Source: a bacterium
GTDB lineage: Bacteria > Eisenbacteria > RBG-16-71-46
Assembly: GCA_046076045.1 (NCBI GenBank)
Contig: JBJTRI010000119.1
Span: 1,014-65,013, forward strand
Direction: 5' to 3'
DNA length: 64,000 nt
Of the stretch, positions 611-24,859 are shown in pieces; within the stretch, counting starts at the first letter, position 1, and the number at the start of each line of letters is the position of its first letter. Made by a program: the position numbers and the translations under genes. The notes under the pieces are model-generated. The model had not been told where the DNA came from and did no database searches. It saw nothing but the letters and a program-made list of their open reading frames with translations.

Positions 611-623
611 CCCCGAGGACCCG

Positions 624-1586: not shown

Positions 1587-2230
1587 CCTTCGGGTCGGTA
1601 GAGGGCCGGGGGCGGGGCCCGCAGGGTCGGTCGGAGCCCGGTCCTGGCAGCGTCTCGGGGCGGACGAAGTCCGGCCATGGGGGGGCCTCGAGGGCCGGCG
1701 CGGGCACCCGTTACAAGGCGTTGTCATGGCGTGGATTGCCGGGCGTCGAGCGGCCGGAGGGTGTCGTCGGGGGGATCGGGGCCGCCGAGAGCGAACGAAC
1801 CCCGGCGGGGAGGGACGGGCATCCTGCACGATGCGGCCCCGTGGGTTTCGCACGACCTCACCCACCCCGTGCTCCGAACGGCACAAGATTCCCCATTCCA
1901 CCGTTGAATCCCGTCCCACCGCGTTGCTAACATGGACTTGTCGGACCGGGTGCGCATTCCTCTACATGGAGAAACCACTGACGAACCTTGGCTAACTGGG
2001 TGTGTAGCACCACGAGCTCTGCCCCCGGACCCTCTCGGGTCGGTGGGACCCGTCGCAAGGCGGGAAAGACATCTCGATACGACATCTTGGTTCCCCCCAG
2101 GCGCTCGTAGGCGATCACTCCAGGGCCCTTCTCACCGAGGACCTTGCTGGACGGAGTGTCGTTCGGGCCACGGGTCGCTTCGCGGACCTGTGGTTCCTCG
2201 TTTCGGGCGACGACAACTGAGAGTGCGCAG

Positions 2231-3142: not shown

Positions 3143-3165
3143 CCGAAACGCTCGAGCCCCCACCC

Positions 3166-4764: not shown

Positions 4765-4796
4765 CGGACGCGAGGCGCGTCCCGGAGGTCTCCCCG

Positions 4797-7302: not shown

Positions 7303-8462
7303 AGGTGCTGCTCGTCGGCAGCGGTCGCGCCTTCGGCGGGACCGAGCGCGTGCTGTGGGAGCTCGCGACCGGGCTGAGCCCGTCGCGCTACGAGGTCCGC
7401 GTCTGGTTGTCGCCCGCCTCCGGCGTGGACGAACTGGCGCAGGCGCTGGAGGCGAGCGGCATCCCGGTGGACCGGGTCGCCGAGGTGGACCGGCGCAGCG
7501 ACCTGCGCGGGATGTGGGACACGTGGTCGCGCCTGCGCGCGCTGCGTCCCGACCTCGTGCATGTGCACCACGTCTGGCCCGCGGCCGATCGCTACCTCGC
7601 CCTGCTCGCGCGCGCCGCCGGCGTGCCGCACCTGGTCGTGACCGAGCACATCACCGGGAGCTCGCACTCGGCCGGTCAGCGCTGGCTCAAGCGCGACGAG
7701 TTGCGTTCGGCGTCCGCGGTGACCGCGGTGACGGGGGCGATCGTGGACACGCTGGTGCGCGACTACGGCATCGAGCGCTCGCTCGTGCGCGTGGTGCCGA
7801 ACGGGGCCGACGTGCCCGACGCCGCGCGCGAGGAACCGCTCGCGCGCCAGTGGCGCGAGCGCTACCTCGCCACCCCGATCAAGCCGTTGTGGGTGATCGC
7901 CGGTCGCATCGAGGAGCAGAAGGGGCACGACGTGCTGTTCCGCGCGCTCGCCCCGATCGTCGCGGCGGGTCTCGACTTCACGCTCGTGGTCGCGGGCGAC
8001 GGCTCGCGTCGGCGCTGGCTCGAGCAGCAGGCGATCTCGAACGGCCTCTCGCCGCGCGTGCAGTTCGTGGGGCAGGTGGACGACATCGGACCGTTGCTCG
8101 CCGCCGCCGACACCGTGCTGCTGCCGTCGCGCTGGGAGGGACTGCCGCTCGTGCTGCTCGAGGCCATGGCGCGCGCACGACCCATCGTGGCGTCCGCGGT
8201 CGGTGGCATCACCGACGTGATCGAGGACGGCGTCACCGGGACGCTCGTGCCGCCCGACGACGTCCCCGCGCTGAGCGCCGCGTTGGAGCTGGCGCACCGC
8301 AAGTCCGACCGCGCCATGCGCATCGGGCGCGCCGCCGCGCAGTGCGTGCGCGAGCGCTACACGTGGGGGGCGGTGGTCTCGGAGTTCGAGGCCGTGTACG
8401 ACGAGGCCGTCGGCGCAGCGAGCGTGACGCCCGAGCGTCCCCCCGCCGGCGGCGCACGATGA
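7281..8462 (+). CDS. Glycosyltransferase family 4/1
   Basis: The internal ATG at 7281 (MRAAARVKVLLVGSG...) gives a typical GT4 N-terminus. It overlaps the previous stop, and the TGA at 8460 overlaps the next start. Confidence 0.75.
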   Translation: MRAAARVKVLLVGSGRAFGGTERVLWELATGLSPSRYEVRVWLSPASGVDELAQALEASGIPVDRVAEVDRRSDLRGMWDTWSRLRALRPDLVHVHHVWPAADRYLALLARAAGVPHLVVTEHITGSSHSAGQRWLKRDELRSASAVTAVTGAIVDTLVRDYGIERSLVRVVPNGADVPDAAREEPLARQWRERYLATPIKPLWVIAGRIEEQKGHDVLFRALAPIVAAGLDFTLVVAGDGSRRRWLEQQAISNGLSPRVQFVGQVDDIGPLLAAADTVLLPSRWEGLPLVLLEAMARARPIVASAVGGITDVIEDGVTGTLVPPDDVPALSAALELAHRKSDRAMRIGRAAAQCVRERYTWGAVVSEFEAVYDEAVGAASVTPERPPAGGAR

Positions 8463-9436
8463 GACTGGGCGTGGTGATCCCCTGCCACCGGCAGGAGCGC
8501 TTCCTGCCGCGCACGCTCGCCGCACTCGAGCACGCGCTCGCCGGTCGCGAGTGGGCGGGCGTGCTGGTGCTCGCCTCGCCGGGGGCCGACGCCGACCTGC
8601 TGCGCGTACCCGCGGGCTGGCGCGTGCTGCGCGCGACCGGGCCCGCCGACGCCGCTCCGCTCACGCCGGGTGCGGCGCGCAACGCCGGGTTCGCGGCGTG
8701 CGGGGGCGACTGGGTGCTGTTCGTGGACGCCGACGTCGAGGTGGAGCGCGCCTGGCTCGAGCGCGCCTGCGACGAGGCGCGACGCGACCCCGAGCTCGCG
8801 GGTTCGTGGGGGCGCATCGAGGAGTGGTTCGTGGACGGGGCGGGGGAGCGGCCGGGCGTGCGCGACCTGTACCGCGTCGGCGACGCCGACGCCGAGGCGC
8901 GCTACACCGCCACGCTGTCGTTCTACCGCCGCGCCGCGCTCGAGGGCGTGGGCGGCTACGACCCGTCGCTCCACAGCGAGGAGGACTTCGAGCTCGGCCT
9001 CCGCCTGCGGCTCGCCGGGCTCCGCATGCGAACGCTCGCACCGCTCGCGGCGCGCCACTGGAGCGGCCCGCGCCCGAGCTTCGCCGAGGTCGGGCGGCGC
9101 TGGCGCACCGGGCTGTGCCTGGGGTCGGGCGAGGCGTTGCGCGCCTACCTCGGGCGTGCGGGCTTCGGTGAACTCGTCGCGCGCAACGCGCACTACGGCG
9201 CCATGCTCGTGCTCGCCCTCGCGGCCCCGGTCGCGGTCGGGCTCGCGGGCGCGCGCGGCCTCGCGGGGTGGGCGCTCGCCCCGCTCGCGCTGCTCGCGCT
9301 CATGACCGTGCGCAAGCGCAGCGCCCGTCTCGCGCTGCACTCGATCGTGACGTGGTCGGTGATGGCCGCGGGTCTGGTCGCGGGGTTCGTGCGCGGCGGG
9401 GCGGCGGCACCCGCGCCCGTCGAGGAGGTCGCGTGA
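8459..9436 (+). CDS. Glycosyltransferase family 2 with C-terminal TM helices
   Basis: Starts MRLGVVIPCHRQERFL (GT2 N-terminal motif) and has DAD and ED-like motifs. Its ATGA overlap joins it to the upstream gene. Confidence 0.75.
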   Translation: MRLGVVIPCHRQERFLPRTLAALEHALAGREWAGVLVLASPGADADLLRVPAGWRVLRATGPADAAPLTPGAARNAGFAACGGDWVLFVDADVEVERAWLERACDEARRDPELAGSWGRIEEWFVDGAGERPGVRDLYRVGDADAEARYTATLSFYRRAALEGVGGYDPSLHSEEDFELGLRLRLAGLRMRTLAPLAARHWSGPRPSFAEVGRRWRTGLCLGSGEALRAYLGRAGFGELVARNAHYGAMLVLALAAPVAVGLAGARGLAGWALAPLALLALMTVRKRSARLALHSIVTWSVMAAGLVAGFVRGGAAAPAPVEEVA

Positions 9437-10605
9437 GGGTGCACCTCGCCTGCGACAACGACATCCACCCGCCGATGTTCGGCGCGACGCAGCGCCTGTT
9501 CGGACTCGCGCGCGGGCTCGCGACGCGGGCCGAGGTGGAGGCGTTGTGCGTCGTGCCCGCCCGCAGCGCTGGCGCGCCCGACGAGCGTGTGGCCGGGGTC
9601 GCGCTGCACCGGCGCAAGGCCCCGCACACGAGCGTGGCGTGGTGGCTGCAGCGCGCCCGCGTCGCGCCGTCGTTCACGAGCGCGTGGGGGCATCGCGCCA
9701 ACGCGGCCGCGTACCGGCGCACGCTCGGTGCGCCCGCCGACGTGCTCGTGTGCGACCTCGCGCTCACCGGCCTGTTCGAGGGCGCGCCCGAGACCGTGCG
9801 CGCCTACCACGCGCACAACGTCGAGGCCCGCCTGTGGCCGCAGACCGCGCCGCCGGTGTGGGGGCGCGCGGCCTGGGCGCGGCGACTCGAGGACCTCGAG
9901 CGCCGTGCGGTCGCCAACAGCGACCTGTGCGTGGCGTGCACCGACGAGGACGCCGAGGCCCTGCGCGCGATCCACGGGGCGCGCGACGTCGAGGTGGTCC
10001 CGAACGGTTACGACGAGACCGCGCTCGCGCCCGCCTCGACCGAGGCCCGCGCGCGCGCCCGCCAGGCGCTCGGCATCGCCCCCGACGCCTATGTGGCGGC
10101 GTTCGTGGGCGGGGACTGGGGCCCCAACCACGATGCCGTGGCGTGGCTCGTGCGCGAGGTGGGGCCGCGGCTGGCCTCCGACGGCGGCGTGCTGCTCGTG
10201 GTCGGCGCGTTCGCGCGCCGGCTCGCGGACCGCCGCGAGCCGTGGCTCGTGACCCGTCCCGAGACGCCCGAGCTCGCCGCCGTGCTCGCCGCCGCCGACG
10301 CCGGGCTGAACCCGGTCGCGAGCGGGGGCGGGAGCAACGTCAAGGTGCCCACCTACCTCGCCTGCGGGCTCGCCGTGGTCTCGACCGCGTTCGGCGTGCG
10401 CGGCTATGCGCCGCTCGCACCCGCGGTCACGGTCGTGCCGCTCGACGGCGTCGCCGACGCGCTGCGCGCGCGTCCGCGCGGTTGGGCGGCCGCCGGCACC
10501 GCAGCGCCGAGCGCGCTCGCGGGCTACGCGTGGGGCGCGCTCGGAGCCGGGCTCGCCGACGCGTTCGCCGCACGCCTCGCCGTGCGCCGACGGGGGGTGG
10601 CGTGA
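9433..10605 (+). CDS. Glycosyltransferase family 4
   Basis: GTG start overlapping the previous stop (GTGA). GT-B fold with conserved C-terminal glycine-rich region. Confidence 0.7.
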   Translation: MRVHLACDNDIHPPMFGATQRLFGLARGLATRAEVEALCVVPARSAGAPDERVAGVALHRRKAPHTSVAWWLQRARVAPSFTSAWGHRANAAAYRRTLGAPADVLVCDLALTGLFEGAPETVRAYHAHNVEARLWPQTAPPVWGRAAWARRLEDLERRAVANSDLCVACTDEDAEALRAIHGARDVEVVPNGYDETALAPASTEARARARQALGIAPDAYVAAFVGGDWGPNHDAVAWLVREVGPRLASDGGVLLVVGAFARRLADRREPWLVTRPETPELAAVLAAADAGLNPVASGGGSNVKVPTYLACGLAVVSTAFGVRGYAPLAPAVTVVPLDGVADALRARPRGWAAAGTAAPSALAGYAWGALGAGLADAFAARLAVRRRGVA

Positions 10606-11711
10606 TGCGCGTCGCGATGATCGGGCAGAAGGGCATCCCCGCGACCTACGGGGGCATCGAGCGGCACGTCGACGAGATCGCACGCCGGCTCGTGGACCTG
10701 GGCATCGACGTGGACGTGTTCTGCCGCCTCTACTACACGCCGCCCGGTACCGAGTACCACAACATCGGTCTGCTCCGTCGGCCGAGCATCCACACCAAGC
10801 ACCTCGACACCGTGACGCACGTGGCGTGGGCGACCGCCGAGGCCATGCTCAAGCGCTACGACGTCGTGCACTTCCACGCCCTCGGGCCCGCGCTGTTCTC
10901 GGGGCTGCCGCGGCTCACGGGGTCGCGCAGCGTGGTGACCGTGCACGGGCTCGACTGGCAGCGCGAGAAGTGGGGGCGGTTCGCGTCGTGGGCGCTGCGG
11001 CGCTGCGAGGGTCCGGCCGCGCACTTCCCCGACCGCACGATCGTGGTGAGCAAGACGCTGCGCGAGCACTTCAAGCACGAGCACGGCGTGGACACCGAGT
11101 ACATCCCGAACGGTACGCACCTGCCGCAGCCGCGCGCCCCGCGCAAGCTGGCCTCGCTCGGACTCGAGCCCGGCAAGTACGTGCTGTTCGTGGGCCGACT
11201 CGTGCCCGAGAAGGGCGTGCACTTCCTGTGCGAGGCGTTCAGCCGCATCGACACCGACCTCAAGCTGGCGCTCGTGGGTGGGCTGTCGTTCTCGCAGGAC
11301 TACGTGAACCTGCTGCGGCGCTACGAGAGCGATCGCATCCGTCTGCTCGACTACGTGTTCGGGGAGTCGCTCGAGGAGCTGTGGAGCAACGCCTACTGCG
11401 TCGTGCAGCCCTCGACCATGGAGGGGCTCTCGATCGCGCTGCTCGAGGCGTTGTCGTACGGCCGCTGCGTGCTCGTCTCGGACATCCCCGAGAACATGGA
11501 GGTGGCCGAGGAGTGCGCGCTGCCGTTCCGCAGCAAGGACGTGGACGACCTGCAGGCGAAGCTCGAGCACCTCATCCGTCATCCCGACGAGGTCGCGGCC
11601 TACGGCGCGCGCGCCCGGGCCCACATCCAGCAGCATTACTCGTGGGACAACGTCGCGGAGTCCACCGCGCTCCTCTACGAGCGCCTGACCGGGAAGTCGC
11701 GACGCGGATGA
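10605..11711 (+). CDS. Glycosyltransferase family 4
   Basis: MRVAMIGQKGIPATYGGIERHV N-terminus and EGLSIALLEALSYGRCVLVSDIPEN C-terminal motif. Its start overlaps the previous stop (TGATG). Confidence 0.85.
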   Translation: MRVAMIGQKGIPATYGGIERHVDEIARRLVDLGIDVDVFCRLYYTPPGTEYHNIGLLRRPSIHTKHLDTVTHVAWATAEAMLKRYDVVHFHALGPALFSGLPRLTGSRSVVTVHGLDWQREKWGRFASWALRRCEGPAAHFPDRTIVVSKTLREHFKHEHGVDTEYIPNGTHLPQPRAPRKLASLGLEPGKYVLFVGRLVPEKGVHFLCEAFSRIDTDLKLALVGGLSFSQDYVNLLRRYESDRIRLLDYVFGESLEELWSNAYCVVQPSTMEGLSIALLEALSYGRCVLVSDIPENMEVAEECALPFRSKDVDDLQAKLEHLIRHPDEVAAYGARARAHIQQHYSWDNVAESTALLYERLTGKSRRG

Positions 11712-11760
11712 CGCCCCGCCGTGGCGCCCCGCGAGGCGCTGTGCTAACCCTTGAGGTCGC

Positions 11761-12822
11761 ATGACGACCCCGACCCGATCGCGTGGTGCGCTCATCCTGG
11801 CCGGTGGCCGGGGCGAGCGATTCTGGCCCTGGAGCACGCCGGAGCGGCCCAAGCAGTTGCTGCCGCTCGCCTCGGGCGGGCGCACGCTGCTCGCGGCCAC
11901 GTTCGCGCGCGCGACCCGGCTGGTGCCCGCCGAGTGCGTGGTCGTCATGACCGCGGCCCCGCTCGTCGAGGCCTGTCGGCGCGAGTGCCCGGGCGCGATC
12001 GTGGTGGGTGAGCCGGTGGGTCGCAACACCGCACCCGCGATCGCCGCGGCCGCCGCGTTCTTCGCCCCCGACACCGCGTTCGCGGTCCTGCCGTCGGACC
12101 ACGCCATCGACGACGAGGCGGCGTTCACCGCCGACCTCGACCGCGCCTTCGAGGTCGCCTCGCGCGACCCGCTGCTCGTGACCTTCGGCATCCGGCCCGC
12201 GACGCCCGACACCGGGTTCGGGTACGTCGAGCGCGGGGCGCCGCTCGCGCCGCGCCTGCACCGCGTCGCGCGCTTCACCGAGAAGCCCGACCTCGAGCGC
12301 GCACAGGCCTACCTCGCCGGCGGCCGACACATGTGGAACAGCGGCATGTTCGTGTGGAAGCGCCGCACCTTCATGAACGCGCTCGCGCAGGGTCGGCCGG
12401 CGATCGCCGACGCGTTCGAGGACTGGGCGTACGGTCCCGGCGACGAGCATGCGTTCGAGGCCGCGCTGGCTGCGCGGTTCGTCGACATGGAGTCGGTGTC
12501 GGTGGACTACGCGGTGCTCGAGGTGGCGTCCAACGTGGTCGTGCTCGAGGCCGCGTTCGACTGGGACGACCTCGGGGGGTGGAACGCCTGGGCGCGCCGC
12601 CAACCGGTGGACGCGCGCGGCAACGTGGCGTGGGGGCAGGCCGTGCCGGTGGACTGCGACCGCTGCGTGATCGTGGGCGACGGGGTGCCGGTGGCCCCCA
12701 TGGGGTTGTCGGACATGGTGGTGGTGACCACGCCCAACGGCACGCTCGTGTGTCGTCGCGAGGACACCGAACGCGTGCGCCGCGTCACCGAGGCGGTGCG
12801 CGCGCGACAGGGGGGAGCATGA
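11761..12822 (+). CDS. manC: Mannose-1-phosphate guanylyltransferase (ManC/CpsB-like nucleotidyltransferase)
   Basis: LILAGGRGERFWPWS...PKQLLPL N-terminal NTP-transferase motif and HMWNSGMFVW region. 353 aa. Confidence 0.75.
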   Translation: MTTPTRSRGALILAGGRGERFWPWSTPERPKQLLPLASGGRTLLAATFARATRLVPAECVVVMTAAPLVEACRRECPGAIVVGEPVGRNTAPAIAAAAAFFAPDTAFAVLPSDHAIDDEAAFTADLDRAFEVASRDPLLVTFGIRPATPDTGFGYVERGAPLAPRLHRVARFTEKPDLERAQAYLAGGRHMWNSGMFVWKRRTFMNALAQGRPAIADAFEDWAYGPGDEHAFEAALAARFVDMESVSVDYAVLEVASNVVVLEAAFDWDDLGGWNAWARRQPVDARGNVAWGQAVPVDCDRCVIVGDGVPVAPMGLSDMVVVTTPNGTLVCRREDTERVRRVTEAVRARQGGA

Positions 12823-13472
12823 GGTCGAACACCGTCCTCGCCGCAGTCGTGCTGGGGTCGTGGCTCGTCGCGTGGCCCGCGGGGGCCGCACCGTCGTCGC
12901 CGGTGGCGGACTCGCTGCCGTCGCCGACCGCGCTGCGCGTGCTCGCGCGCATCCCCGAGCCCGTGCCCGCCGACCGCGTGGTCGCGCCTGCGCCTACGCC
13001 CGCGCGCCGCGCGGCCGCACCCGAGGCCGCCTACGACACGCTGCGCACGGGCGACGTGCCGGTGCCGTCCCCGACGACGCCGTTCACCCCGCCGCCGCCG
13101 CCCGTCGTGCTGCCGCCCGAGCCCGCCGCGCCCGTGGCCCCGACCGCACCCGCCGCGCCGGCCGCACCCGCCGACGGTTCGTGCTGGCGCGTGCAGTTCG
13201 CCGCGCCCGCCGACTCGACGCTGGCCGCGTCGCGTCGCGAGGCCGCGCAGTCGTTGCTGCTCGTGGCGGCGTCGGTGGAGTTCGAGCGCGGGCTGTACAA
13301 GGTGCGCTCGCGCGACTGCATGACGCGCGAGGCCGCCGACGCGGTCAAGCGCCGTGCGACCGAGTCCGGCTTCGAGGGCGTGTTCCTGCTCGACGCCTCG
13401 GTCCGTGCGAGCGAGCCCCCGGCGACGAAGCCCGCGCCCAAGCGCAAGACGCGGCGCGGCACGAGCCGATGA
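12819..13472 (+). CDS. SPOR domain-containing protein (signal peptide, Pro/Ala-rich linker, C-terminal SPOR)
   Basis: ATGA overlap with manC. N-terminal hydrophobic signal, a long PAPT-rich linker, and a C-terminal CWRVQFAAPAD...YKVRSRDCMTREAADAVKRR segment typical of SPOR domains. Confidence 0.7.
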   Translation: MRSNTVLAAVVLGSWLVAWPAGAAPSSPVADSLPSPTALRVLARIPEPVPADRVVAPAPTPARRAAAPEAAYDTLRTGDVPVPSPTTPFTPPPPPVVLPPEPAAPVAPTAPAAPAAPADGSCWRVQFAAPADSTLAASRREAAQSLLLVAASVEFERGLYKVRSRDCMTREAADAVKRRATESGFEGVFLLDASVRASEPPATKPAPKRKTRRGTSR

Positions 13473-14713
13473 GCACGCGCCGTCTCATCCTGCACGAGGA
13501 CCGCTTCTGGCGGTCGTTGCGCCCGCTCACCGACCTGCTGCCCGTGCCCGCGCTCGCGTTCGGCGCCTCGGACCTGGCGCGTCGCTGGATCGCGTACGCG
13601 GGCCTGCCGTTGTTCGCGATCGAGGCGCGCGCCGCCGCCATGGCCGGCTGGGCCGCGGCCCCGGTGCCCGACACCGCGGCCATCGCGGCCGACGACGAGG
13701 CGCTGGTGGTGAACGCCGCCGCACTCCCGGGACCGTGGTTCGATGCCGTGCGCGCCGGGCGCGCGCCGGGCCTGTTCCTCGCGGGCGGGCGCGTCGCCGC
13801 CGCTCGCCTGCCGCTCGCGCTGTTGCGCGGCGGGATCGGACGCGGCGAGGACTTCGAGACCGTGCTGCTCGGGCTCGCGCTGCCCACCGCCCCGGTGGAC
13901 GCCGCGTTCCTCGACTGGCCGTGGGACCTCATGGCGCGCAACCCCGACGCGATCGCCGCCGACCTCGCGGGCTGCGCGCCGCGGCGTGACGGCCGCGTGC
14001 ACGCGAGCGCGGTGCTCGAGTCCCCGGAGCGCATCGCGATCGAGGACGGTGCGGTCGTGGGCCCGTTCGTGGTGCTCGACGCCAGCGACGGCCCCATCCG
14101 CATCGCGCGTGGCGCGCGCGTCGAGGCGCACTCGGTGGTGCGCGGGCCGTGCGTCGTCGGCCCCGGCACGCAGTTGCTCGGCGGCTCGTTCACCGCGTGC
14201 ACGTTCGGGCCCGAGTGCCGCGTCGCGGGCGAGGTCGAGTGGACCGTGTGGCAGGGATACGCCAACAAGCGCCACCACGGGTTCGTGGGGCACAGCGTGA
14301 TCGGGGAGTGGGTGAACCTCGGTGCGCTCACCACCACGAGCGACCTCAAGAACAACTACGGGCGCGTGCGGGTGTGGGTGGACGGCCACGAGACCGACAC
14401 CGGCAGCCCGAAGGTGGGTGCGTTCCTCGGGGCGCACGTCAAGACCGGCATCGGCACGCTGCTGCCCACCGGGGCCGCGGTCGGCAGTGCCGCCAACCTG
14501 TTCGGCGGGGGGCGCTTCGTGCCCAAGCGCGTCGCCCCGTTCGCGTGGTGGGACGGTGAGCGCTGGGCCGAGCACGACCTCGAACGCATGCTCGCGACCG
14601 CGCGTCTCGTCGCCTCGCGCCGCGGGCGCACGCTCACGCCGGCGGCCGAGGACGCGATCCGCGCGCTCCATTCGGCAACCGCCGCCGAGCGCGCCACGGT
14701 CACGGGCGCTTGA
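13469..14713 (+). CDS. Left-handed beta-helix (hexapeptide-repeat) protein with degenerate N-terminal nucleotidyltransferase-like domain
   Basis: ATGA overlap with the SPOR gene. The C-terminal half has hexapeptide repeats (IGEWVNLGALTTTSDLKNNYGRVRVWV...GAFLGAHVKTGIG); the N-terminal half lacks a GxGxR motif. Confidence 0.6.
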   Translation: MSTRRLILHEDRFWRSLRPLTDLLPVPALAFGASDLARRWIAYAGLPLFAIEARAAAMAGWAAAPVPDTAAIAADDEALVVNAAALPGPWFDAVRAGRAPGLFLAGGRVAAARLPLALLRGGIGRGEDFETVLLGLALPTAPVDAAFLDWPWDLMARNPDAIAADLAGCAPRRDGRVHASAVLESPERIAIEDGAVVGPFVVLDASDGPIRIARGARVEAHSVVRGPCVVGPGTQLLGGSFTACTFGPECRVAGEVEWTVWQGYANKRHHGFVGHSVIGEWVNLGALTTTSDLKNNYGRVRVWVDGHETDTGSPKVGAFLGAHVKTGIGTLLPTGAAVGSAANLFGGGRFVPKRVAPFAWWDGERWAEHDLERMLATARLVASRRGRTLTPAAEDAIRALHSATAAERATVTGA

Positions 14714-14790
14714 CCCTGCTCGCGCCCCGTTCCTAGACTCGCGCGGTTCGCACCCGTGGGTGCGGACCTCCATCCCTTCCCGAGGACCCG

Positions 14791-15804
14791 ATGCCCGAAC
14801 TGCGCAAGGACCCCGTCGTTGGCCGCTGGGTGATCATCTCCACCGAGCGCAGCCGCCGCCCCGGACACTTCACGCCCGAGACCGGTACGGACGCCCACGC
14901 GTTCTCCCCGTTCGCCGAGGGGCGCGAGGACATGACCCCGCCCGAGGTGTGGTCCGACCGGCCGGCCGGCAAGCCCGCGAACTCGCCGGGTTGGACGGTG
15001 CGCGTGGTCCCCAACAAGTTCCCGGCGCTCGAGATCGAGGGCTCGCTCGACCGGCGCGGCGAGGGCCTGTACGACAGGATGAACGGCGTCGGCGCGCACG
15101 AGGTCGTGATCGAGACGCCCGACCCCGGCGTGCAGTTCGCCGACCTGCCCGTGGAGCCCATGCAGCAGGTGCTCATCGCGTGGCGCGAGCGCATGCGCGA
15201 CCTGCGCAAGGACCCGCGGTTGCGCTACGTGCTCGTGTTCAAGAACCACGGCGCGGGCGCCGGGGCGACGCTCGAGCACTCGCACAGCCAGATCATCGCC
15301 ACGCCCATCATCCCGCGCATGGTGCAGGAGGAGCTCGACGGCGCGCGCCGCTACTTCGAGCTCAAGGAGCGTCCGGTGTTCTCGGACATCATCGACCAGG
15401 AGACCGGCGAGGCGCAGGGCAAGCGCGTGATCTCGCGCACCGGTCGGTTCATCGCGCTCGCACCGTTCGCGCCGCGGTTCCCGTTCGAGACCTGGGTGAT
15501 GCCGCTCGCGCACCGGCCGTCGTACCACATGATCGACGACGACGGGGAGCTGCTCGAGCTCGCCGGCCTGCTCAAGGACACGCTCGCGCGCCTCAACGCC
15601 GCGCTCGACTCGCCGCCCTACAACCTCGTGCTGCACACCGCGCCGCTGGCCGACCCGGACCATCCGCACTACCACTGGCACATCGAGATCATGCCCAAGC
15701 TCACGCGGGTCGCCGGGTTCGAGATCGGATCGGGTTTCTACATCAACCCGACGCCGCCCGAGGACGCGGCCCGCTACCTGCGCGACGTCGTCGTCGGCGC
15801 CTGA
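14791..15804 (+). CDS. GalT-family (HIT superfamily) hexose-1-phosphate nucleotidyltransferase, galactose-1-phosphate uridylyltransferase-like
   Basis: KDPVVGRWVIISTERSRRP N-terminus, Cys/His zinc site region and the HSHSQ active-site motif with catalytic His. 337 aa. Confidence 0.75.
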   Translation: MPELRKDPVVGRWVIISTERSRRPGHFTPETGTDAHAFSPFAEGREDMTPPEVWSDRPAGKPANSPGWTVRVVPNKFPALEIEGSLDRRGEGLYDRMNGVGAHEVVIETPDPGVQFADLPVEPMQQVLIAWRERMRDLRKDPRLRYVLVFKNHGAGAGATLEHSHSQIIATPIIPRMVQEELDGARRYFELKERPVFSDIIDQETGEAQGKRVISRTGRFIALAPFAPRFPFETWVMPLAHRPSYHMIDDDGELLELAGLLKDTLARLNAALDSPPYNLVLHTAPLADPDHPHYHWHIEIMPKLTRVAGFEIGSGFYINPTPPEDAARYLRDVVVGA

Positions 15805-15823
15805 GCGGAGTCCCGACCCGGTC

Positions 15824-17356
15824 ATGGGTTCGCCCCTGTCCATCGTCCACCTCGCGAGCGAGATGGCCCCGTTCGCCAAGGTGGGCGGGCTCGGTGACGT
15901 CGTCGCCGCGCTCGCGCGCGAGCAGGTCCGGCGCGGGCATCGCGTGGTGGTCGCACTGCCGCGCTACCGCGACCTCGTGCTGCCCGCCGGGTGGCGGCTC
16001 ACCGAGCTCGACGGCACGCTCGTGCCGTGGGGTGTGGGGCACGAGCCGGCCCGGTTCGCGATCGCCGAGGGCCCGCTCGACCAGCCCACCGTGCTGCTCG
16101 TCGAGCACGCCGGTGACCGCCGGTTCTTCGCGCGCGCGGGCTTCTACGACGACCCGGTGACGCACGAGGGCTACCCCGACAACCCCGAGCGCTTCCTGTT
16201 CTTCACGCGCGCCGCGCTCGAGGCGGTGAAGGCGTTCGGGGAGCGCTTCCACGTCCTGCACGCGCATGACCAGCAGGCGGCGTGGGCGCCGTGCTTCGTG
16301 CGCACGCACGATGCCGACGACGACGCGTTCCTCGGCACCGCGACCGTGTTCACGATCCACAACCTCGGCTACCAGGGCATCGTGGACCCGTGGGTGCTCG
16401 GGCTCGCCGGCTTCCCGCGCGGTGAGTTCCACCCGCGCAGCCCGTTCGAGTACCACGGCCGCGTGAACTTCATGAAGGTCGGCATCCTGTTCGCCGACCT
16501 CGTCTCGACCGTGAGCCCCACCTACGCGCGCGAGATCCAGACCACGGGCGAGTACGGGTTCGGGCTCGAGGGCGTGCTGCGTCGCCGCACGGGCGACGTG
16601 CGGGGCATCCTGAACGGCATCGACGACCACGACTGGGACCCGGCGCACGACCGTTGGCTGCCGGCGCACTACGACCGCGACCGACTCGACGGCAAGCGCG
16701 TCTGTCGTCGGGCGCTCGCGCTCGAGTCGGGCTTCCCGCTCGAGCCCGACTGGCCCATCGTGGGCATCGTGTCGAGGCTCGTCGAGCAGAAGGGCTTCGA
16801 CCTCATCGAAGCCGCCGAGCATGCGCTGTGCGACCTGCAGGCGCGCTTCGTCGTGCTGGGTATGGGTTCGCCGCGCTACGTGGAGCGGTTCCGCCGGCTG
16901 GCGGCCGAACGCCCGTGGCAGTGGCGGTTCGAGGGGGCGCACGACGAGGGACTGGCGCACCGCATCGAGGCCGGCGCCGACCTGTTCCTCATGCCGTCGC
17001 GCTACGAGCCGTGCGGGCTCAACCAGCTCTACTCGCTGCGCTACGGCACCGTGCCGGTGGTGCGCGCGACCGGGGGGTTGGCCGACACGGTGCGCGAGTT
17101 CGACCCGATCACGCGCGAGGGCAACGGGTTCGTGTTCGAGGGCTTCGCGCCGGACGAGATGGTCATGGCCCTGCGGCGCGCACTCGCGACGCACGGCGAG
17201 CCCGAGGCGTGGCGCGCGCTCCAGCGCAACGGCATGGCGCGCGACTCGAGTTGGCGGGCCGCGGCCGACGGCTACGACCGCCTGTACGCCGAGGCCATGG
17301 AGCGAGTGGCGCAGGGCCGCGTGCCGAGCCTCGAGAGCGTGCTCGACACCTTCTGA
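15824..17356 (+). CDS. glgA: Glycogen (starch) synthase, ADP-glucose type (GT5)
   Basis: The KVGGLGDVV motif near the N-terminus is the hallmark of GlgA. GT-B fold, 510 aa. Confidence 0.85.
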   Translation: MGSPLSIVHLASEMAPFAKVGGLGDVVAALAREQVRRGHRVVVALPRYRDLVLPAGWRLTELDGTLVPWGVGHEPARFAIAEGPLDQPTVLLVEHAGDRRFFARAGFYDDPVTHEGYPDNPERFLFFTRAALEAVKAFGERFHVLHAHDQQAAWAPCFVRTHDADDDAFLGTATVFTIHNLGYQGIVDPWVLGLAGFPRGEFHPRSPFEYHGRVNFMKVGILFADLVSTVSPTYAREIQTTGEYGFGLEGVLRRRTGDVRGILNGIDDHDWDPAHDRWLPAHYDRDRLDGKRVCRRALALESGFPLEPDWPIVGIVSRLVEQKGFDLIEAAEHALCDLQARFVVLGMGSPRYVERFRRLAAERPWQWRFEGAHDEGLAHRIEAGADLFLMPSRYEPCGLNQLYSLRYGTVPVVRATGGLADTVREFDPITREGNGFVFEGFAPDEMVMALRRALATHGEPEAWRALQRNGMARDSSWRAAADGYDRLYAEAMERVAQGRVPSLESVLDTF

Positions 17357-18592: not shown

Positions 18593-18799
18593 CTGGGCGA
18601 GGGATAGACGGTCGGGGCGGTCCGTGCAACCCGCGCCCGCGGCCCCGTCCGGGCGGGGACGGCTCCGGGGCCGGCCCGGCTCCGAGGGGGCCCGTGCGGG
18701 GCTGCCGGGGGCCTTCCCGGCGAGCTCCCCGGCGGGGCGAGCGGGGGCGGGCTTGACGGTCACGCCTCCGGCCGGATATGGTTGCCGCCGCTCTTGTTC

Positions 18800-18876
18800 G
18801 CGGAAGTAGCTCAGCCCGGTAGAGCATCACCTTGCCAAGGTGAGGGTCGGGGGTTCGAATCCCCTCTTCCGCTCCA
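18800..18876 (+). tRNA. tRNA-Gly (anticodon GCC)
   Basis: Hand-folded cloverleaf: acceptor GCGGAAG/CTTCCGC, D-arm GCTC..GAGC, anticodon stem TCACC/GGTGA with loop TTGCCAA, T-arm GGGGG-TTCGAAT-CCCCT, discriminator T, encoded CCA. Confidence 0.85.
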
Positions 18877-18932
18877 TGTCCGCACGGGCCGGCCTTCCAG
18901 GTCGGCCCGTCGCGCTTTCCGGGGGTGTTCCC

Positions 18933-19499
18933 ATGAGCGGTCCCGTTCGCGACCTGGCCGCCGTCGAGCGCGCCGTCGCCGACCTGCTCCGGGCCCTGGG
19001 GCTGTCCGCCGTCTCCGAGCCCGAACTGGCCCAGACCCCCGCGCGGGTCTCCGAGCTCTACCGCGAGGTGCTCTCGGGGCTCGACCCGGCCACGCACCCC
19101 GACCTCGCCACCTTCCCGCACGCCGGTCAGGGCGACCTCGTCGTGGTCCGCGACCTCGAGTTCCACTCGTTGTGCGTGCACCACATGGTGCCGTTCTTCG
19201 GTCGCGCGCTCGTGGCCTACCTGCCGGGCGACACGCTCGTCGGGATCAGCGCCGCCGCTCGCTTGCTCGAGACCTACTCGCGCCGTCCGCAGTTGCAGGA
19301 GCGACTCGGCCAGCAGATCGCCGACCACCTCGACCGCCTCATCCGTCCGCGCGGCGTCGCGGTGGTGCTCGAGGCGCGCCACCTGTGCATGGAGATGCGC
19401 GGGATCCGCCGGCGGGGCATGGTCGAGACGCGCGCGGTGCGCGGTGAACTCGCCGACCCGCGGTGGGCCGAGGCGTTGCGCTTCGGGCCCGGGGCCTGA
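18933..19499 (+). CDS. folE: GTP cyclohydrolase I
   Basis: Conserved FolE core ([27 protein letters not shown]). The internal ATG at 18933 avoids overlap with the tRNA. Confidence 0.85.
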
Positions 19500-19513
19500 G
19501 CCGGGGGGCAGCG

Positions 19514-20266
19514 ATGAGCGGTGTGCCGTCGGTCAGCGTCGTGCTCGTGACCCGCGACCGGCGTGCGCTGCTCGCCGACGCGCTCGCGAGCGTGGTCGCG
19601 CAGTCGCCCGCGCCGTGCGAGGTGCGCATCGGCGACGACGGCACCACGCCCGCCGTGCTGCCCGACGACCTGCCCCTGCTCGAGGTCACGGTGGTGCCGG
19701 GGGGGCACGGGTCCGCCGCGGCCGCGCGCAATGCCGCCGCTGCCGGGGCGCGCGGTGAGGTGCTGGCGTTCCTCGACGACGACGACCGCTGGCGTCCGGG
19801 GCACCTCGCCGCGCTCGCCGAGGCGTTCCGCGACCCCACGGTGGGCTTCGCCTGGCGCGACAGCGAGGTGGTGCGCGAGCGCGTGGCCCCCTCGGGCGAG
19901 CGCATCGCCTACGACCGTCGCACGCTCGCGCGCGACTGGGACGACGCGCTCATGCGCTCCGACGACTACCTGCCGCCGAGCGCGTGGGGCGTGCGTCGCT
20001 CGTGCTTCGAGGCGCTGGGCGGGTTCGACGCCTCGCTGCGCTACAGCGAGGACTGGGACTTCGTGCTGCGGGCCGCCGCCCGCACCGGCGTGCGCCGCGT
20101 GCCCGGTGTTTCGGTCGAGGTCCGGCTGCGCGAGAGCGGCAACAGCTCGGCGGAGTTCACGCCCGAGCGTCTCGAGTGCCTGCGGCGCGTGGCCGAGCGC
20201 CACGGGTTCGCGACCCCGGGCCCCAAGACGTTCTGGGAGGTGGCGCTCGCGGTGGGGGCGTCGTGA
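19514..20266 (+). CDS. Glycosyltransferase family 2
   Basis: [21 protein letters not shown]...DDGT and FLDDDD (DXD) motifs. 250 aa. Confidence 0.7.
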
Positions 20267-21177
20267 CGGGACGCGAACTGGTCATCGTGGGCGCGGGCCC
20301 GGCCGGGGTCTCGGCCGCGTTGTGGGCGCGCCTGCTCGACCTCGACGTGCTGTTGCTCGAGGCGGGCGAGGGGCCGGGCGGCCAGTTGCACCACATCCAC
20401 TTCCAACCGCGCGAGATCCCGGGGTGGACGGCGGGGGACGGTGCGGCCATGGCCGCGACCTACGAGCGCCAGCTCGCCGAGTCCGGCATCCCCGTGCGCT
20501 ACGGTGCGGTCGCGGCGGCCCTCACGCCCGGCGAGCCCCCGTCTCTGACGCTCGCCGACGGCGGCACGGTGGCCGCGCGTGCGCTGCTCGTCGCCACCGG
20601 CGCGCGGCGCCGTCGTCTCGGCGTGCCGGGCGAGGAGGATTTCACCGACCGCGGCCTGTCGTACTCCGCGACCCGCGACCTGTCGCGCCTCACCGGGCGC
20701 CGCCTGGTGGTGGTGGGCGGGGGCGATGCGGCCTACGAGAACGCGCTCATCCTGGCGGCCGCGGGCCGCGACGTGACGCTGCTCGTGCGCGGGGTGTCGC
20801 GGGCGCGTGCCGAGTTCCGCGAGCGCGTGGCGGCCGATGCCCGCATCCGCGTGCGCACCGGTGCCACGGTGCGCGCGGTGCTCGGCGACGATCGCGTGCG
20901 GGCGCTGCGCGTCGCGGAGCCCGACGGCGAGCGCGAGTTGCCGTGCGACGGCGTGGTGGTGAAGGTCGGCGTGGTGCCCAACACCGAGTGGTGCCGTGGT
21001 GCGCTCGCGCACGACGCCGACGGCTGGCTCACGGTGGACGCGTCGTTCGCGACCTCGGGTGCGGGCGTGTGGGCCGCGGGCGACGTGACGCGCCCGCTGC
21101 TGCCGGGCATCCCGGTCGCGCACGGCCACGGTGCCCTCGTGGTCGCCGCCATCCGGCACGCGCTGCGCGGCGACTGA
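20263..21177 (+). CDS. Thioredoxin-reductase-like FAD/NAD(P)-binding oxidoreductase lacking the CxxC redox centre (TrxR-type FNR-like)
   Basis: GTGA overlap with upstream GT2. It has LVIVGAGPAGVSAA (FAD) and VVVGGGDAAYENAL (NADPH) motifs. The position of the TrxB CATC motif reads SYSATRDL, so both cysteines are missing. Confidence 0.75.
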   Translation: MTGRELVIVGAGPAGVSAALWARLLDLDVLLLEAGEGPGGQLHHIHFQPREIPGWTAGDGAAMAATYERQLAESGIPVRYGAVAAALTPGEPPSLTLADGGTVAARALLVATGARRRRLGVPGEEDFTDRGLSYSATRDLSRLTGRRLVVVGGGDAAYENALILAAAGRDVTLLVRGVSRARAEFRERVAADARIRVRTGATVRAVLGDDRVRALRVAEPDGERELPCDGVVVKVGVVPNTEWCRGALAHDADGWLTVDASFATSGAGVWAAGDVTRPLLPGIPVAHGHGALVVAAIRHALRGD

Positions 21178-21256
21178 CGCCGCGCTCTGGCGCCGCGGCC
21201 ACGGCGCGGTTAGCGTGCCGTGCATCCACCGACCGTCCCCGAACCCGGAGCCCCCG

Positions 21257-22786
21257 ATGAGCGCTTTCACCGACCCGCGCGACCTCGCCCAACTCGCCGA
21301 GCGTGGCATCTCGCCCGCCGAGGCCGAGCGCCAACTCGAGGTCATGGGCCGCCCCGCGGCGTGGGCCGTGCTCGAGCGCCCGTGCACGCCGGGCGACGGG
21401 ATCGAGCGGCTCGACGAGGCGCGGATCGAGGGGCTGCTCGCGGAGCACGCCCGCGCCGCCCGCGCCGGGCGCGTGAGCGCGTTCGTGCCCGCCTCGGGCG
21501 CGGCGACGCGCATGTTCAAGGACCTGCTCGCGGCCCGCGACCTGCCGGGGGCCCTCGAGCCCGCGGTGGTCCGCGCCACCGCGGGCCCGGCGGCCGCCGG
21601 TCTCGTGCGGTTCGTGGACGAGTTGCCGCGCTTCGCGTTCGCCGACGCGCTGGCCGCCGTGCTGGCGCGTGACGGTCACGACCTCGCCACGCTCCGCTCG
21701 CAGGGCCCGTGGCGCCCGCTGCTCGAGGGCTTCCTGGCCCCGAGCGGACTCGATGCGGCGCGCGCCCCCAAGGGCCTGCTCGCGTTCCACCGCGAGGGCG
21801 GGCAGGCGCGCACCGCGTTCGAGGAGCACCTGCTCGAGGCGGTGCCGCTCGCGAGCGACGCCACCGGCGTGCGAGCCCTCGACGTGACCGTGTCGCCCGA
21901 GCATCGCGCCGGGTTCGAGGCCGTGCTCGCGACGCGCGCCCCCGCGCTCGCCGAGTGCTTCGAGGGCCGCTGGGAGGTGGCCTTCAGCGAGCAGCACCCG
22001 GCCACCGACACGATCGCGGGCGACCCCGCGGGCGGGGCGTTCCGCGACGAGCACGGTCGGCTGCTGTTCCGGCCCGCCGGGCACGGCGCGCTGCTCCACA
22101 ACCTCGGGGTCTCGGGGCGCGACCTCGTGTTCCTGAAGAACATCGACAACGTGGCGGTGTGGCGCATGAAGGGCGAGACCGTGCGCTGGGCGCGCGCACT
22201 CGTCGGGTTGGCGGCCGAGACCTCGGCGCACGCGAGCGCGCTCGTGCGCCGCCTGCGCGCCGGGGACGCGGCGGCCCCCGCCGAGGCCCGCGCGTGGGCG
22301 GCGATGGAACTGGGTCTGGTGCTGCCCCCCGCGCTCGATGCGGCCGCTCTGGCTGACGCGCTCGACCGTCCGGTGCGCGTGTGCGGCATGGTGGCCAACA
22401 CCGGCGAGCCCGGGGGCGGACCGTTCTGGGTGCGCGGCGCGCACGGCCTGACGCGCCAGATCGTGGAGTCCGCGCAGGTCGATCCGGCCTCGGCCGCGCA
22501 GCAGGCGGTGCTGCGCTCGGCCACGCACTTCAACCCGGTGTTCCTCGCCTGCGCCCTGCGCGCCGCCGACGGACGACCGCACGACCTCGACCGGTTCGTG
22601 GACCCCGCCGCGGTCATCGTCACGCGCAAGTCGCACGGGGGCCGCGACCTGTTGGCGCTCGAGCGGCCGGGGTTGTGGAACGGTGCGATGGCGCACTGGC
22701 TCACGCGCTTCGTCGAGGTGCCGCTCGCGGTCTTCAATCCCGTCAAGACGGTCTTCGACCTGTTGCGCCCCGAGCACCAGGGCTAG
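21257..22786 (+). CDS. Conserved hypothetical protein, DUF4301-like (possible nucleotidyltransferase-like fold)
   Basis: 509-aa ORF with uniformly high GC3. Motifs VPASGAATRMF and LFRPAGHGALL..FLKNIDNV recall sugar-nucleotide pyrophosphorylase folds. The family name is from memory, not a search. Confidence 0.55.
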   Translation: MSAFTDPRDLAQLAERGISPAEAERQLEVMGRPAAWAVLERPCTPGDGIERLDEARIEGLLAEHARAARAGRVSAFVPASGAATRMFKDLLAARDLPGALEPAVVRATAGPAAAGLVRFVDELPRFAFADALAAVLARDGHDLATLRSQGPWRPLLEGFLAPSGLDAARAPKGLLAFHREGGQARTAFEEHLLEAVPLASDATGVRALDVTVSPEHRAGFEAVLATRAPALAECFEGRWEVAFSEQHPATDTIAGDPAGGAFRDEHGRLLFRPAGHGALLHNLGVSGRDLVFLKNIDNVAVWRMKGETVRWARALVGLAAETSAHASALVRRLRAGDAAAPAEARAWAAMELGLVLPPALDAAALADALDRPVRVCGMVANTGEPGGGPFWVRGAHGLTRQIVESAQVDPASAAQQAVLRSATHFNPVFLACALRAADGRPHDLDRFVDPAAVIVTRKSHGGRDLLALERPGLWNGAMAHWLTRFVEVPLAVFNPVKTVFDLLRPEHQG

Positions 22787-22802
22787 GCGGGCGCCCGCGC
22801 CC

Positions 22803-24859
22803 TCAGTGCGTGGCGAGCACGCGCAGCGAGCGCGGCGCGAGCCGGTCGTGCATCGGGTCGGGCAGCGGACGCGACTGCTCGATCGGCGTGAAGTCCTCGG
22901 GCGCGGCACTCGCGGTGTCGGCGATGAGGTGCCAGTGGCCGCCGCGCCCGGGCTCGGGCGTGGTGAAGTGCTGCGGTTGGGCCGTCCCGTTCACCTGCAG
23001 CAGGAAGTCCGGGTCGCCGTCGCCGTGCACGTGCATCTGCAGCATGAGGCCACCCGCGTCCCAGTCGGGCGGGCCGAGGATCGGACCGTGCCAGCTCACG
23101 CCGTCGGCGCCGGTCGAGCGGTACCAGCCCTCGCCGCGCAGCACCTTGTACTCGCGCCGCAGTCGCATGAGGCCCGCCACGAAGCGCTGGAACGCGGCCT
23201 CGTCGGGGCTGGCGTCCCAGTCGAGCCACCACGCCGGGCCGTCGTGGCACCACGCGTTGTTGTTGCCGCGCTGCGAGCGCAGGCGATCGTCGCCCCACAG
23301 CCAGAGCACCGCGCCGCGCGACAGCAGGGTGAGGGCGGCGGCGTTGCGCGCCTGACGCAGGCGCACGCCGAGCACCGCCGGGTCGTGCGTCGGGCCCTCG
23401 GCGCCCCCGTTCCAACTGCGGTGGTGGTCGCTGCCGTCGCGTTCCTGCTCGCCGTTCGCGAGGTTGTGCTTGCGCTCGTGGCTCACGAGGTCGGCGAGCG
23501 TGAAGCCGTCGTGGCAGGTCACGAAGTTCACCGAGTGCCCCGGGCGCCGGTCGGGCGCGAACCGGTCGGAGGAGCCGCCGAGCCGGGTGGCGAGCGCGCC
23601 GGGGCACCGCCGTGCCCGCGCAGCCAGTCGCGCACGTCGTCGCGGAAGTGGTCGTTCAACTCGGCCCACCGGCCGTGGTGCGGGAAGCGGCCGCCGTGGT
23701 ACACGCCGGTGTCCCACGGCTCGGCGATGAGCTTGCAGTGCGCGAGCAGCGGGTCCTCGGCGATCGCGCGCACGAGCGGCGGGTCGGCGAGCGGGGTGCC
23801 GTCGGGGCCGCGCGTGAGCGTCGAGGCGAGGTCGAAGCGGAACCCGTCCACGTGCATCTCGTGCGCCCAGAACCGCAGCGCGTCGAGCACCATGCGCGAG
23901 CCGTGCTCCGAGGCGCACGCGAACGTGTTGCCGCAGCCGGTGTGGTCGCGGTCGCGCCCGTCGGCGTCGAGCAGGTAGTAGCTCGCGCGGTCGAGCCCGC
24001 GCCAACTGCGCGGCGGTTCGGTGCGTGAGCCCTCGCCAGTGTGGTTGAACACCACGTCCAGGATGACCTCGAGCCCGACGCGGTGCAGCGCGCGCACCAT
24101 GTCGCGGAACTCCCGCAACGCCCCGGCCGCGGTGGCGTCGGCGGCGTACGCGGTGCGCGGCGCCATGAACGCGAGCGGCGCGTAGCCCCAGACGTTGAGC
24201 AGCGGCTCGCCCGTGAGCGGGTTCGTGCGCGGGTTGTCGGTCTCGTCGAACTCGGCGACCGGCATGAGCTGCACCGCCGTGAAGCCCATCGCGGCCAGCC
24301 ACCCGGCCTTCTCCGCGAGGCCCGCGAACGTGCCGGGGTGCGCGACGCGCGAGCTCGGGTGCGCGGTGAACGCACGCACGTGCGTCTCGTGGATCACGGT
24401 GTCGCCGAGCGGCGTGCGCGGCGCGCGGTCGTCGCCCCAGTCGTAGGCCAGGTCCACCACGACCGAGCGCAGCACGCGCGGGCCGCCGCGCTCGGGTCGC
24501 TCGCCCCAGCGCTCGGAGCCCGCCACGCCGTGCGCGTACGGGTCGAGCAGGAGGGCGTCGGGGTCGAACGCGTGCTCGGGACCGCGCACGTCGGAGTCGG
24601 AGCGCCACGCGTACTCGGCGCCTGCGGCGAGCCCGGGTACGAACGCGTGCCAGACGTCGCCGGTGCGGTGGCGCGCCGGGGCGAGCTCGAACTCGCGTAC
24701 CGCGCGGCCGCCGGGTGCGAACAACGCGAGCGTCAGACGCGTGGCGTGGCGCGAGACGACCGCGAAGTTCACGCCAGCCCGCGTGAGCGTGGAGCCGAGC
24801 GGCTCGGCGGAGCCGGGCTCGACGCTCAGCGCACTCGGGGGCGGGACGGGATCGGCCAT
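22803..24859 (-). CDS. glgX: Glycogen debranching enzyme GlgX / isoamylase (GH13), reading frame interrupted by an apparent 1-nt frameshift near 23590-23600
   Basis: Two overlapping minus-strand ORFs (23528..24859 and 22803..24608) together give a colinear GlgX: N-terminal CBM48-like region, catalytic GH13 motifs (GFRFDLAS, EPWD) and C-terminal domain. The shift sits in a CCCC/GGGG run inside GHGGAP/PGALATRLGGSSD. Confidence 0.7.

Follow-up and report, generated by a model that had tools for sequence, protein, structure and literature searches.

Four co-oriented genes that lie close together in a 64-kb stretch of DNA (the window; G+C content ~74%), whose closest protein matches carry the name Candidatus Eisenbacteria in public databases, raise the question of whether they work together. 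On the forward strand, behind a tRNA-Gly (GCC) gene, the order is folE, encoding GTP cyclohydrolase I; a gene for a family-2 glycosyltransferase (GT2); one for a cysteine-less flavoprotein of the thioredoxin-reductase (TrxR) fold; and one for a protein of the DUF4301 family. An earlier reading made from the DNA letters and their translations (the sequence-only reading) had joined all four in a pathway to a modified pterin or deazapurine metabolite. On balance we favour another view, that this is a lineage-specific string of co-oriented genes rather than a dedicated four-gene pathway, and that DUF4301 is a separate gene. The stable unit would run from tRNA-Gly through folE and an optional GT2 gene to the Cys-less flavoprotein.

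Much of the evidence for this view comes from the company that DUF4301 keeps elsewhere. Eighty genome loci carrying DUF4301, each taken with flanks of up to 10 kb, were searched by tblastn for relatives of FolE, GT2 and the flavoprotein of the window; they span Bacteroidales, Desulfobacterota, Acidobacteriota, Binatia, Nitrospirales, Ignavibacteria, Calditrichia and others. In 78 of the 80, DUF4301 has none of these three genes within 10 kb, and the remaining two (L001 and L002; loci are cited by L numbers) are close relatives of the window. The sequence-only reading had itself named an absence of folE and GT2 from DUF4301 loci elsewhere as what would speak against its proposal, and outside these two relatives that absence is what was found. 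When all neighbours were clustered, no single family reached more than 8 of the 80 loci, and among the 53 same-strand DUF4301 partners within 200 bp there is neither a GTP cyclohydrolase nor a GT2.

The other part of the evidence is gene order within the lineage, drawn from two sources: the surroundings of orthologues of GT2, the flavoprotein and DUF4301, and a scan of metagenomes that took the flavoprotein as its seed. In all 32 informative loci folE lies 5' of the flavoprotein gene on the same strand, and a tRNA-Gly gene immediately precedes folE in 16 of 16 loci, among them L090 and L091 with their rearranged upstream regions. A GT2 gene separates folE from the flavoprotein gene in 35 of 43 related loci; in the other eight folE abuts the flavoprotein gene, with 18-64 nt from the end of one to the other (L086, for example). 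DUF4301 occurs downstream in 17 of the 19 sub-clade loci whose sequence extends for 3 kb or more, and is directly adjacent to the flavoprotein gene in one of these 17, the window itself; in L113 and L118 it is not found within 8 kb. The two genes also occur without each other: L086 has DUF4301 and no GT2, while L113, L098 and L118 have GT2 and no DUF4301 nearby. Of the four genes whose tight spacing had suggested a shared function, folE and the flavoprotein gene are a conserved, co-oriented pair, GT2 is dispensable, and the linkage does not extend to DUF4301. The features of the locus are these:

18753..18782, + strand: match to a sigma-70-like promoter, TTGACG-18-TATGGT, 5' of the tRNA gene (a consensus match only)
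18800..18876, + strand: tRNA-Gly (GCC) (ARAGORN; Rfam RF00005, 70 bits)
18881..18925, + strand: GC-rich hairpin with a short U tract, terminator- or attenuator-like (folding energy -33.1 kcal/mol, z = -3.3)
18933..19499, + strand: folE, GTP cyclohydrolase I, 188 aa (PF01227, 3.9e-52; NF006826)
19514..20266, + strand: small GT-A family-2 glycosyltransferase, 250 aa, optional operon member (PF00535, 3.1e-16)
20263..21177, + strand: Cys-less flavoprotein of the thioredoxin-reductase fold, binding FAD and NAD(P)H, 304 aa (Pyr_redox_2, 5.8e-43)
21178..21256, + strand: spacer of 79 nt, where relatives have a gene for a polytopic membrane protein of ~330 aa (from the comparison of loci)
21257..22786, + strand: DUF4301 protein, 509 aa, putative sugar-1-phosphate nucleotidyltransferase of the UDPGP fold (PF14134, 1.5e-150; AlphaFold2 model)
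22803..24859, - strand: convergent, frameshifted gene for a glgX-type debranching enzyme (CBM_48 and Alpha-amylase domains)

All four reading frames lie where the sequence-only reading had placed them, and the Pfam matches listed (GTP_cyclohydroI, Glycos_transf_2, Pyr_redox_2 and DUF4301) bear out the identities it gave. Its account of the spacing can likewise be read directly in the DNA: the folE stop codon, TGA at 19497-19499, is followed after 14 nt by the GT2 ATG at 19514, and in the GTGA at 20263-20266 the GT2 stop overlaps the start of the flavoprotein gene. Since its genes overlap or lie 14 nt apart, the unit is probably co-transcribed. The 4-nt overlap recurs in L081, L083, L084, L087, L088, L089 and L090. 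Between the flavoprotein stop at 21177 and the DUF4301 ATG at 21257 there is a spacer of 79 nt, with an apparent ribosome-binding site, GGAG, 8 nt 5' of the ATG.

In relatives this spacer position is often occupied. A gene for a polytopic membrane protein of ~330 aa, matching no Pfam family, lies 3' of the flavoprotein gene in 13 of 28 loci, and directly after it in L081, L084, L087, L088, L090 and L091. (Its coordinates are 9744-10739 in L081, 9750-10754 in L084, 6596-7606 in L086, 8821-9801 in L087 and 5713-6714 in L088.) A tblastn search of the 64-kb window finds no trace of it; DUF4301 would be adjacent here, and here only, because this intervening gene was lost, bringing DUF4301 directly behind the flavoprotein gene. 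What else lies between the two is variable: a STAS, anti-sigma kinase and RR-SpoIIE set in L086; Band_7, NfeD, an esterase and another gene, on both strands, in L088; and, counting L002 as well, up to four unrelated or opposite-strand genes before DUF4301. Among the more divergent members NfeD/Band_7 genes follow the flavoprotein gene in L113 and L098, and Wza/Wzc-like genes follow it in L118. On the other side, a divergent aspartate kinase gene is usually retained. It and the tRNA-Gly gene are conserved nearly as well as the folE-flavoprotein pair, so conservation of the block is by itself no proof of shared function.

The region upstream of folE may hold an expression signal shared with the tRNA. 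The promoter-like site at 18753-18782 is the sole match in 18600-23000, against a mean of 0.0 in shuffled sequences. Ten loci keep the hairpin stem, GGGCCGGC pairing with GCCGGCCC, and in L086 and L113 the changes in it are two-sided; hairpin and U tract stand between tRNA-Gly and folE in the window, L081, L083, L084, L086-L088, L090, L091 and L113. An Rfam scan gave no riboswitch or other RNA family 5' of folE, and a consensus scan of 18600-23000 gave no intrinsic terminator. The hairpin with its U tract ends ~8 nt 5' of the folE ATG, which is too little room for a promoter of its own, so that folE is probably expressed by read-through from the promoter of the tRNA gene, or under attenuation control. 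In L090 a phage-type integrase gene (4817-5410) stands with GT87 and beta-helix genes between the aspartate kinase gene and tRNA-Gly (5472-5548), an arrangement that looks like integration at the tRNA gene.

FolE looks like a canonical, housekeeping-type GTP cyclohydrolase I. It scores 176.7 bits against PF01227 (cutoff 27) and 180.8 bits against NCBIfam NF006826 (cutoff 162), and its translation contains two zinc and active-site strings, one of ten residues and the other HLCMEMRG (Cys-x-His-His plus a downstream Cys), whose residues we take, from E. coli FolE, to be those of the zinc site.

The glycosyltransferase matches PF00535 with 60.2 bits (cutoff 23.3). Its best solved relative is 9jma, a PglI-type glucosyltransferase (55 bits), and its FLDDDDRW aligns with FLDDDD of that protein, an acidic motif of the DxD type. 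No named GT2 equivalog (MftF, PglI, WcaA, EpsD or the arsenosugar glycosyltransferase) is reached at its NCBIfam cutoff, the best being MftF at 79.5 bits versus 280. The enzyme would be an accessory GT-A glycosyltransferase, gained or lost within the operon. Its best 120 matches are all orthologues from the same lineage, as are those of the flavoprotein, and so portray the distribution of the two proteins within the lineage.

The flavoprotein is collinear from end to end with the solved thioredoxin reductase 5uwy (E 1e-37, reaching residue 303 of 308). At the redox site this alignment places S-A-T-R ('glsysatrd') against C-A-V-C ('gvsycavcd'), so that the replacement of the disulfide by SATR, already proposed from the sequence, is upheld, and it is kept in 31 orthologue sequences, with S135 invariant and A136, T137, R138 and D139 nearly so. 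All 48 distinct loci of the orthogroup, at 49-100% identity, carry the motif G-x-S/T-x-S-A-T-x-D. TrxB (TIGR01292) and the flavoprotein have in common the two-domain architecture, the length and the GxGxxG and GGGDxAxE motifs, the last present here as GGGDAAxEN; they differ in that CxxC has become S-x-S-A-T-R and HRR has become VRG, and in that an invariant cysteine lies elsewhere. This residue, C244 (codon 20992-20994), in the string N-T/S-E-W-C, is the single invariant cysteine in the 31 orthologues and could be a one-cysteine catalytic residue. The redox disulfide being lost and the FAD and NAD(P)H motifs kept, electrons would pass from NAD(P)H through FAD to an acceptor other than thioredoxin.

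Two named identities were tried for this protein and rejected: thioredoxin reductase itself (TIGR01292), for want of the CxxC and at 182.4 bits versus a cutoff of 343.45, and the bacillithiol-disulfide reductase YpdA/Bdr (TIGR04018), at 52.9 bits versus 339.9. YpdA has a conserved N-terminal cysteine (Cys14) in its GxGxxG region; the N-terminus of the flavoprotein, GAGPAGVSA, has no Cys. A second Cys-less TrxR-like family, 31-41% identical to this one, is encoded in metagenome loci L131-L171 (G+C ~0.55). It has the motif G-I/V-x-x-S-G/A-x-x-D and keeps HRR, and its conserved neighbours are a 143-aa protein that is DUF309-like by eye and a 335-aa protein without assignment; it never adjoins folE.

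If DUF4301 is a separate gene, what does it do? The 509-aa protein fills the whole of its family profile (PF14134, 502.9 bits, profile positions 3-507 of 507), and an AlphaFold2 model built from 30 homologues has a pLDDT of 86.9 and a pTM of 0.88. Foldseek compared this model with the PDB and returned 64 chains at E <= 0.001, the best at 2e-9; the top 50 are all UAP1/AGX/UGP enzymes (UAP1/AGX from Aspergillus, insect and human; UGPase from human and plants) with probability 1.0, and the best of them give TM scores of 0.49-0.55 at ~12% identity. The profile and structure comparisons that the sequence-only reading had suggested for this product thus end in a full DUF4301 match and a UDPGP-type fold, and the pyrophosphorylase-like character it had sensed in the protein has now a predicted structural basis.

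The motifs may be in keeping with the fold. A profile of 60 diverse DUF4301 sequences was compared by hhalign with the human UGP2 and AGX1 sequences, which had been verified against 3r2w and 1jv1. It aligns with UGP2 over residues 399-504 (E 3.4e-4), where VEVPxxxFxPVKTVxDLL of DUF4301 pairs with INVPRSRFLPVKTTSDLL of UGP2; against AGX1 it lays PAGHGA over the PDGNGG motif at E 0.076, and a narrower profile gives a non-significant 0.2. The residues invariant in the 60 proteins (S80, G81, A83, R85, G275, H276, G277, N295, N298, G386, G387, E404 and K497) fall in motifs that match, in a pairing made by eye, the nucleotide loop, PxGHG, NxDN and PVK lysine of the UDPGP enzymes. Set beside human UGP2, AGX1/UAP1 and Aspergillus UAP1, the predicted likeness would extend to the loop (SGAATRM versus GGQGTRL), to PAGHGAL versus PPGHGD and PDGNGG, and to KNIDN versus SNIDN. 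The differences are that DUF4301 ends right after PVK...DLL and so would lack the C-terminal domain of UGP2 (~100 residues); that, in the model, a further helical part stands at the N-terminus and a long helical segment is inserted at ~302-370; and that in some of its relatives an RR-SpoIIE phosphatase is fused to the protein or encoded next to it. Judged from the model, DUF4301 is probably a sugar-1-phosphate nucleotidyltransferase, which would convert nucleoside triphosphate (NTP) and sugar-1-phosphate to NDP-sugar and pyrophosphate by a UGPase/UAP catalytic core.

The family is large, with more than 8,000 matches in 90% clusters and 2,376 clusters at 50% identity (E <= 0.001). Its commonest neighbour families, identified by eye as FtsH, FolP, CoaX, an ABC ATPase and RfbB/C, reflect lineage-local synteny. 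FolP, present in seven Desulfobacterota-type loci, was considered as a link to folate and rejected: it lies beside ftsH, ~2 kb off and on the opposite strand, and ftsH-folP is a usual gene block. The recurrent same-strand partners are GT1/GT4 glycosyltransferases, TreT, RfbC, an RfbB-like dehydratase, GT3 glycogen synthase, NTP_transferase and an undecaprenyl-phosphate translocase-like protein; DUF4301 would probably serve general carbohydrate metabolism. Directly 3' of DUF4301 stand a TreT-type trehalose synthase gene in Binatia (L043 and L050, 11734-13095) and an RfbB-like 4,6-dehydratase gene in a Firestonebacteria metagenome-assembled genome (L023, 11573-12664). These partners hint at an NDP-glucose product, and with glycogen synthase they make glucose-1-phosphate a reasonable first guess at the substrate.

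Some members of the family are linked to regulatory genes. Two representatives, P0317 (730 aa) and P0320 (905 aa), are fusions of DUF4301 to PP2C phosphatase domains of the SpoIIE type, with a receiver domain or without one, and full-length RR-SpoIIE genes adjoin it in L002 (4238-5413), L086 (8632-9822), L033 (6163-7689) and L057 (8546-9718). These adjacencies cover loci of Eisenbacteria, Acidobacteriota and Calditrichia, the L086 locus adding STAS and anti-sigma-kinase genes, and DUF4301 may be regulated by a partner-switching module.

The surroundings of the string within the window are rich in carbohydrate genes, the first 17 kb being a region for exopolysaccharide (EPS), sugar nucleotides and glycogen. 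Positions 1-12800 hold an EPS-type locus with genes for a GT2, an NAD-dependent epimerase, a Bac_transf priming transferase, a PMT_2-like membrane protein, UDP-glucose dehydrogenase and three GT4 enzymes. At 11761-17356 (+ strand) lie genes for a ManC-like NTP_transferase, an NTP_transf_4/hexapeptide protein and a GalT-family protein (DUF4921/DUF4931-like), directly 5' of glgA; the block is syntenic in L081, L084 and L087, and a classical glgC was not seen in the window, which suggests an unusual route to the donor for glycogen synthase. Beyond the string the glgX-type gene converges on DUF4301 from the opposite strand, 16 nt away. Orthologues align with it in frame -1 down to 23606 and in frame -3 from 23597, so that the broken gene is either a pseudogene or an assembly error.

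The pathway first proposed would have DUF4301 activating a sugar, GT2 transferring it and the flavoprotein setting the redox state of a glycosylated or otherwise modified pterin or 7-deazapurine. Co-orientation and tight spacing in the window speak for it, a pyrophosphorylase fold would suit the supply of a donor to GT2, and DUF4301 does lie within a few kb in most of the sub-clade; we nevertheless regard it as very improbable, in view of the DUF4301 loci that lack all three partners, of GT2 and DUF4301 occurring independently, of the opposite-strand genes that part DUF4301 from the operon in L088 and L086, and of the missing committed enzymes. Among the ~50 window reading frames scanned with Pfam, a few small ones having been left out, none encodes PTPS/QueD, sepiapterin reductase or another pterin reductase, QueC/E or FolB/K/P. 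Cyanobacterial pterin-glycoside synthesis, which the proposal brought to mind, proceeds by way of GTP cyclohydrolase I, PTPS, sepiapterin reductase and the glycosyltransferase BGluT/PgtA (PMC3546692). The likeness lies in the GTP cyclohydrolase I start and in a nucleotide-sugar-dependent glycosyltransferase; PTPS and sepiapterin reductase have no counterpart in the scanned frames, and the glycosyltransferase here is a facultative GT2. A smaller module, in which folE and the flavoprotein, with GT2 in most genomes, would make or recycle a specialised reduced pterin, the flavoprotein reducing the pterin at the expense of NAD(P)H and GT2 glycosylating the product, would fit an order that persists at 49-100% identity despite changes in the flanks and the gain or loss of GT2, a GT2/flavoprotein overlap seen in seven loci, and a link with folE that is specific to this subfamily, the nearest Cys-less TrxR-like outgroup lying elsewhere. 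We consider it rather unlikely all the same, given the nearly equal conservation of the aspartate kinase and tRNA-Gly genes, a folE that is ordinary and above the NCBIfam FolE cutoff, and evidence that comes from one lineage. Known pterin reductases are of the short-chain dehydrogenase/reductase or the dihydrofolate reductase type, and we know of none with the TrxR fold.

Two further explanations divide the string differently. In one, folE and the flavoprotein are bystanders to a cell-envelope or storage-glycan module made up of GT2, DUF4301 and the membrane protein of the relatives: DUF4301 would supply the NDP-sugar, GT2 would transfer it and the membrane protein would handle a lipid-linked or exported product. 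The carbohydrate genes of the first 17 kb fit this, as do the glgX-type gene that follows DUF4301, the activity of the closest solved GT2 relative on an undecaprenyl-PP-glycan and the Wza/Wzc-like genes after the operon in L118. GT2 and DUF4301 are, however, independent in their presence within the lineage, GT2 overlaps the flavoprotein gene and not DUF4301, the membrane protein belongs to no recognisable family, and glgX, being convergent, is not co-transcribed, all of which makes the module quite improbable. The other explanation concerns the flavoprotein alone, which the sequence-only reading had likened to the ferredoxin-NADP reductases (FNRs) of TrxR type; as a TrxR-type ferredoxin/flavodoxin-NAD(P)+ reductase it would serve general electron transfer. 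The part of the analogy that stands is the TrxR fold with retained GxGxxG and GGGDAAxEN and a missing CxxC, as in that class. What does not stand is the closeness, since the protein scores 133 bits to genuine TrxRs versus 47-56 bits to YumC-type and Chlorobaculum-type FNRs, and its match to YumC (3lzw) stops at residue 287 of 332 with 28 query residues remaining. TrxR-like FNR classes lack CXXC and also have a C-terminal subdomain from which a His, Val, Tyr or Phe stacks on the FAD (PMC10294844); by that definition a 304-aa protein collinear with TrxR to its C-terminus would have no such subdomain, and we judge the assignment unlikely.

Several observations weigh against the view we favour, of a string with DUF4301 as a separate and probably sugar-activating gene. 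In the 17 sub-clade loci DUF4301 lies within ~1-4.5 kb downstream, and a loose association is possible. The linkage of folE with the flavoprotein gene, which survives several independent rearrangements both upstream (L090, L091) and downstream, could reflect a functional coupling beyond co-transcription. As to DUF4301 itself, the signs of kinship with the UDPGP enzymes are weak at the level of sequence: Pfam at E = 10 gives DUF4301 only, with PF01704 absent, and the DUF4301 profile hidden Markov model finds nothing among the PDB sequences even at E = 10. The hhalign probability for the 60-sequence profile versus UGP2 is only 38%, and TM is ~0.5.

A single association proves robust, that of tRNA-Gly with folE and the Cys-less flavoprotein, and with it the idea of a pterin-related redox partner stays alive, at low probability. 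In its boldest form, which we think improbable, this would be a new pterin module of Eisenbacteria, its flavoprotein the first NAD(P)H-dependent pterin oxidoreductase of the TrxR fold and its GT2 making a pterin glycoside by a non-cyanobacterial glycosyltransferase family; separately, the eukaryote-type UDP-sugar pyrophosphorylases would have in DUF4301 a bacterial branch that had gone unrecognised, one widespread among Bacteroidota, Desulfobacterota and Acidobacteriota and possibly under RsbU-like (RR-SpoIIE) control.

A pathway of all four genes, if true, would point to a new pterin or deazapurine metabolite, and most of its basis is lost once the loci are compared. In its place DUF4301, a large family with almost no literature, now has an assignable, predicted activity as a sugar-1-phosphate nucleotidyltransferase of the UGPase/UAP type, which is relevant to the carbohydrate metabolism of gut and rumen Bacteroidales and of many sediment phyla. 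The disulfide-less, TrxR-derived flavoprotein, locked to folE across one candidate phylum, offers with it a defined pair in which a pterin-related redox function may be sought.

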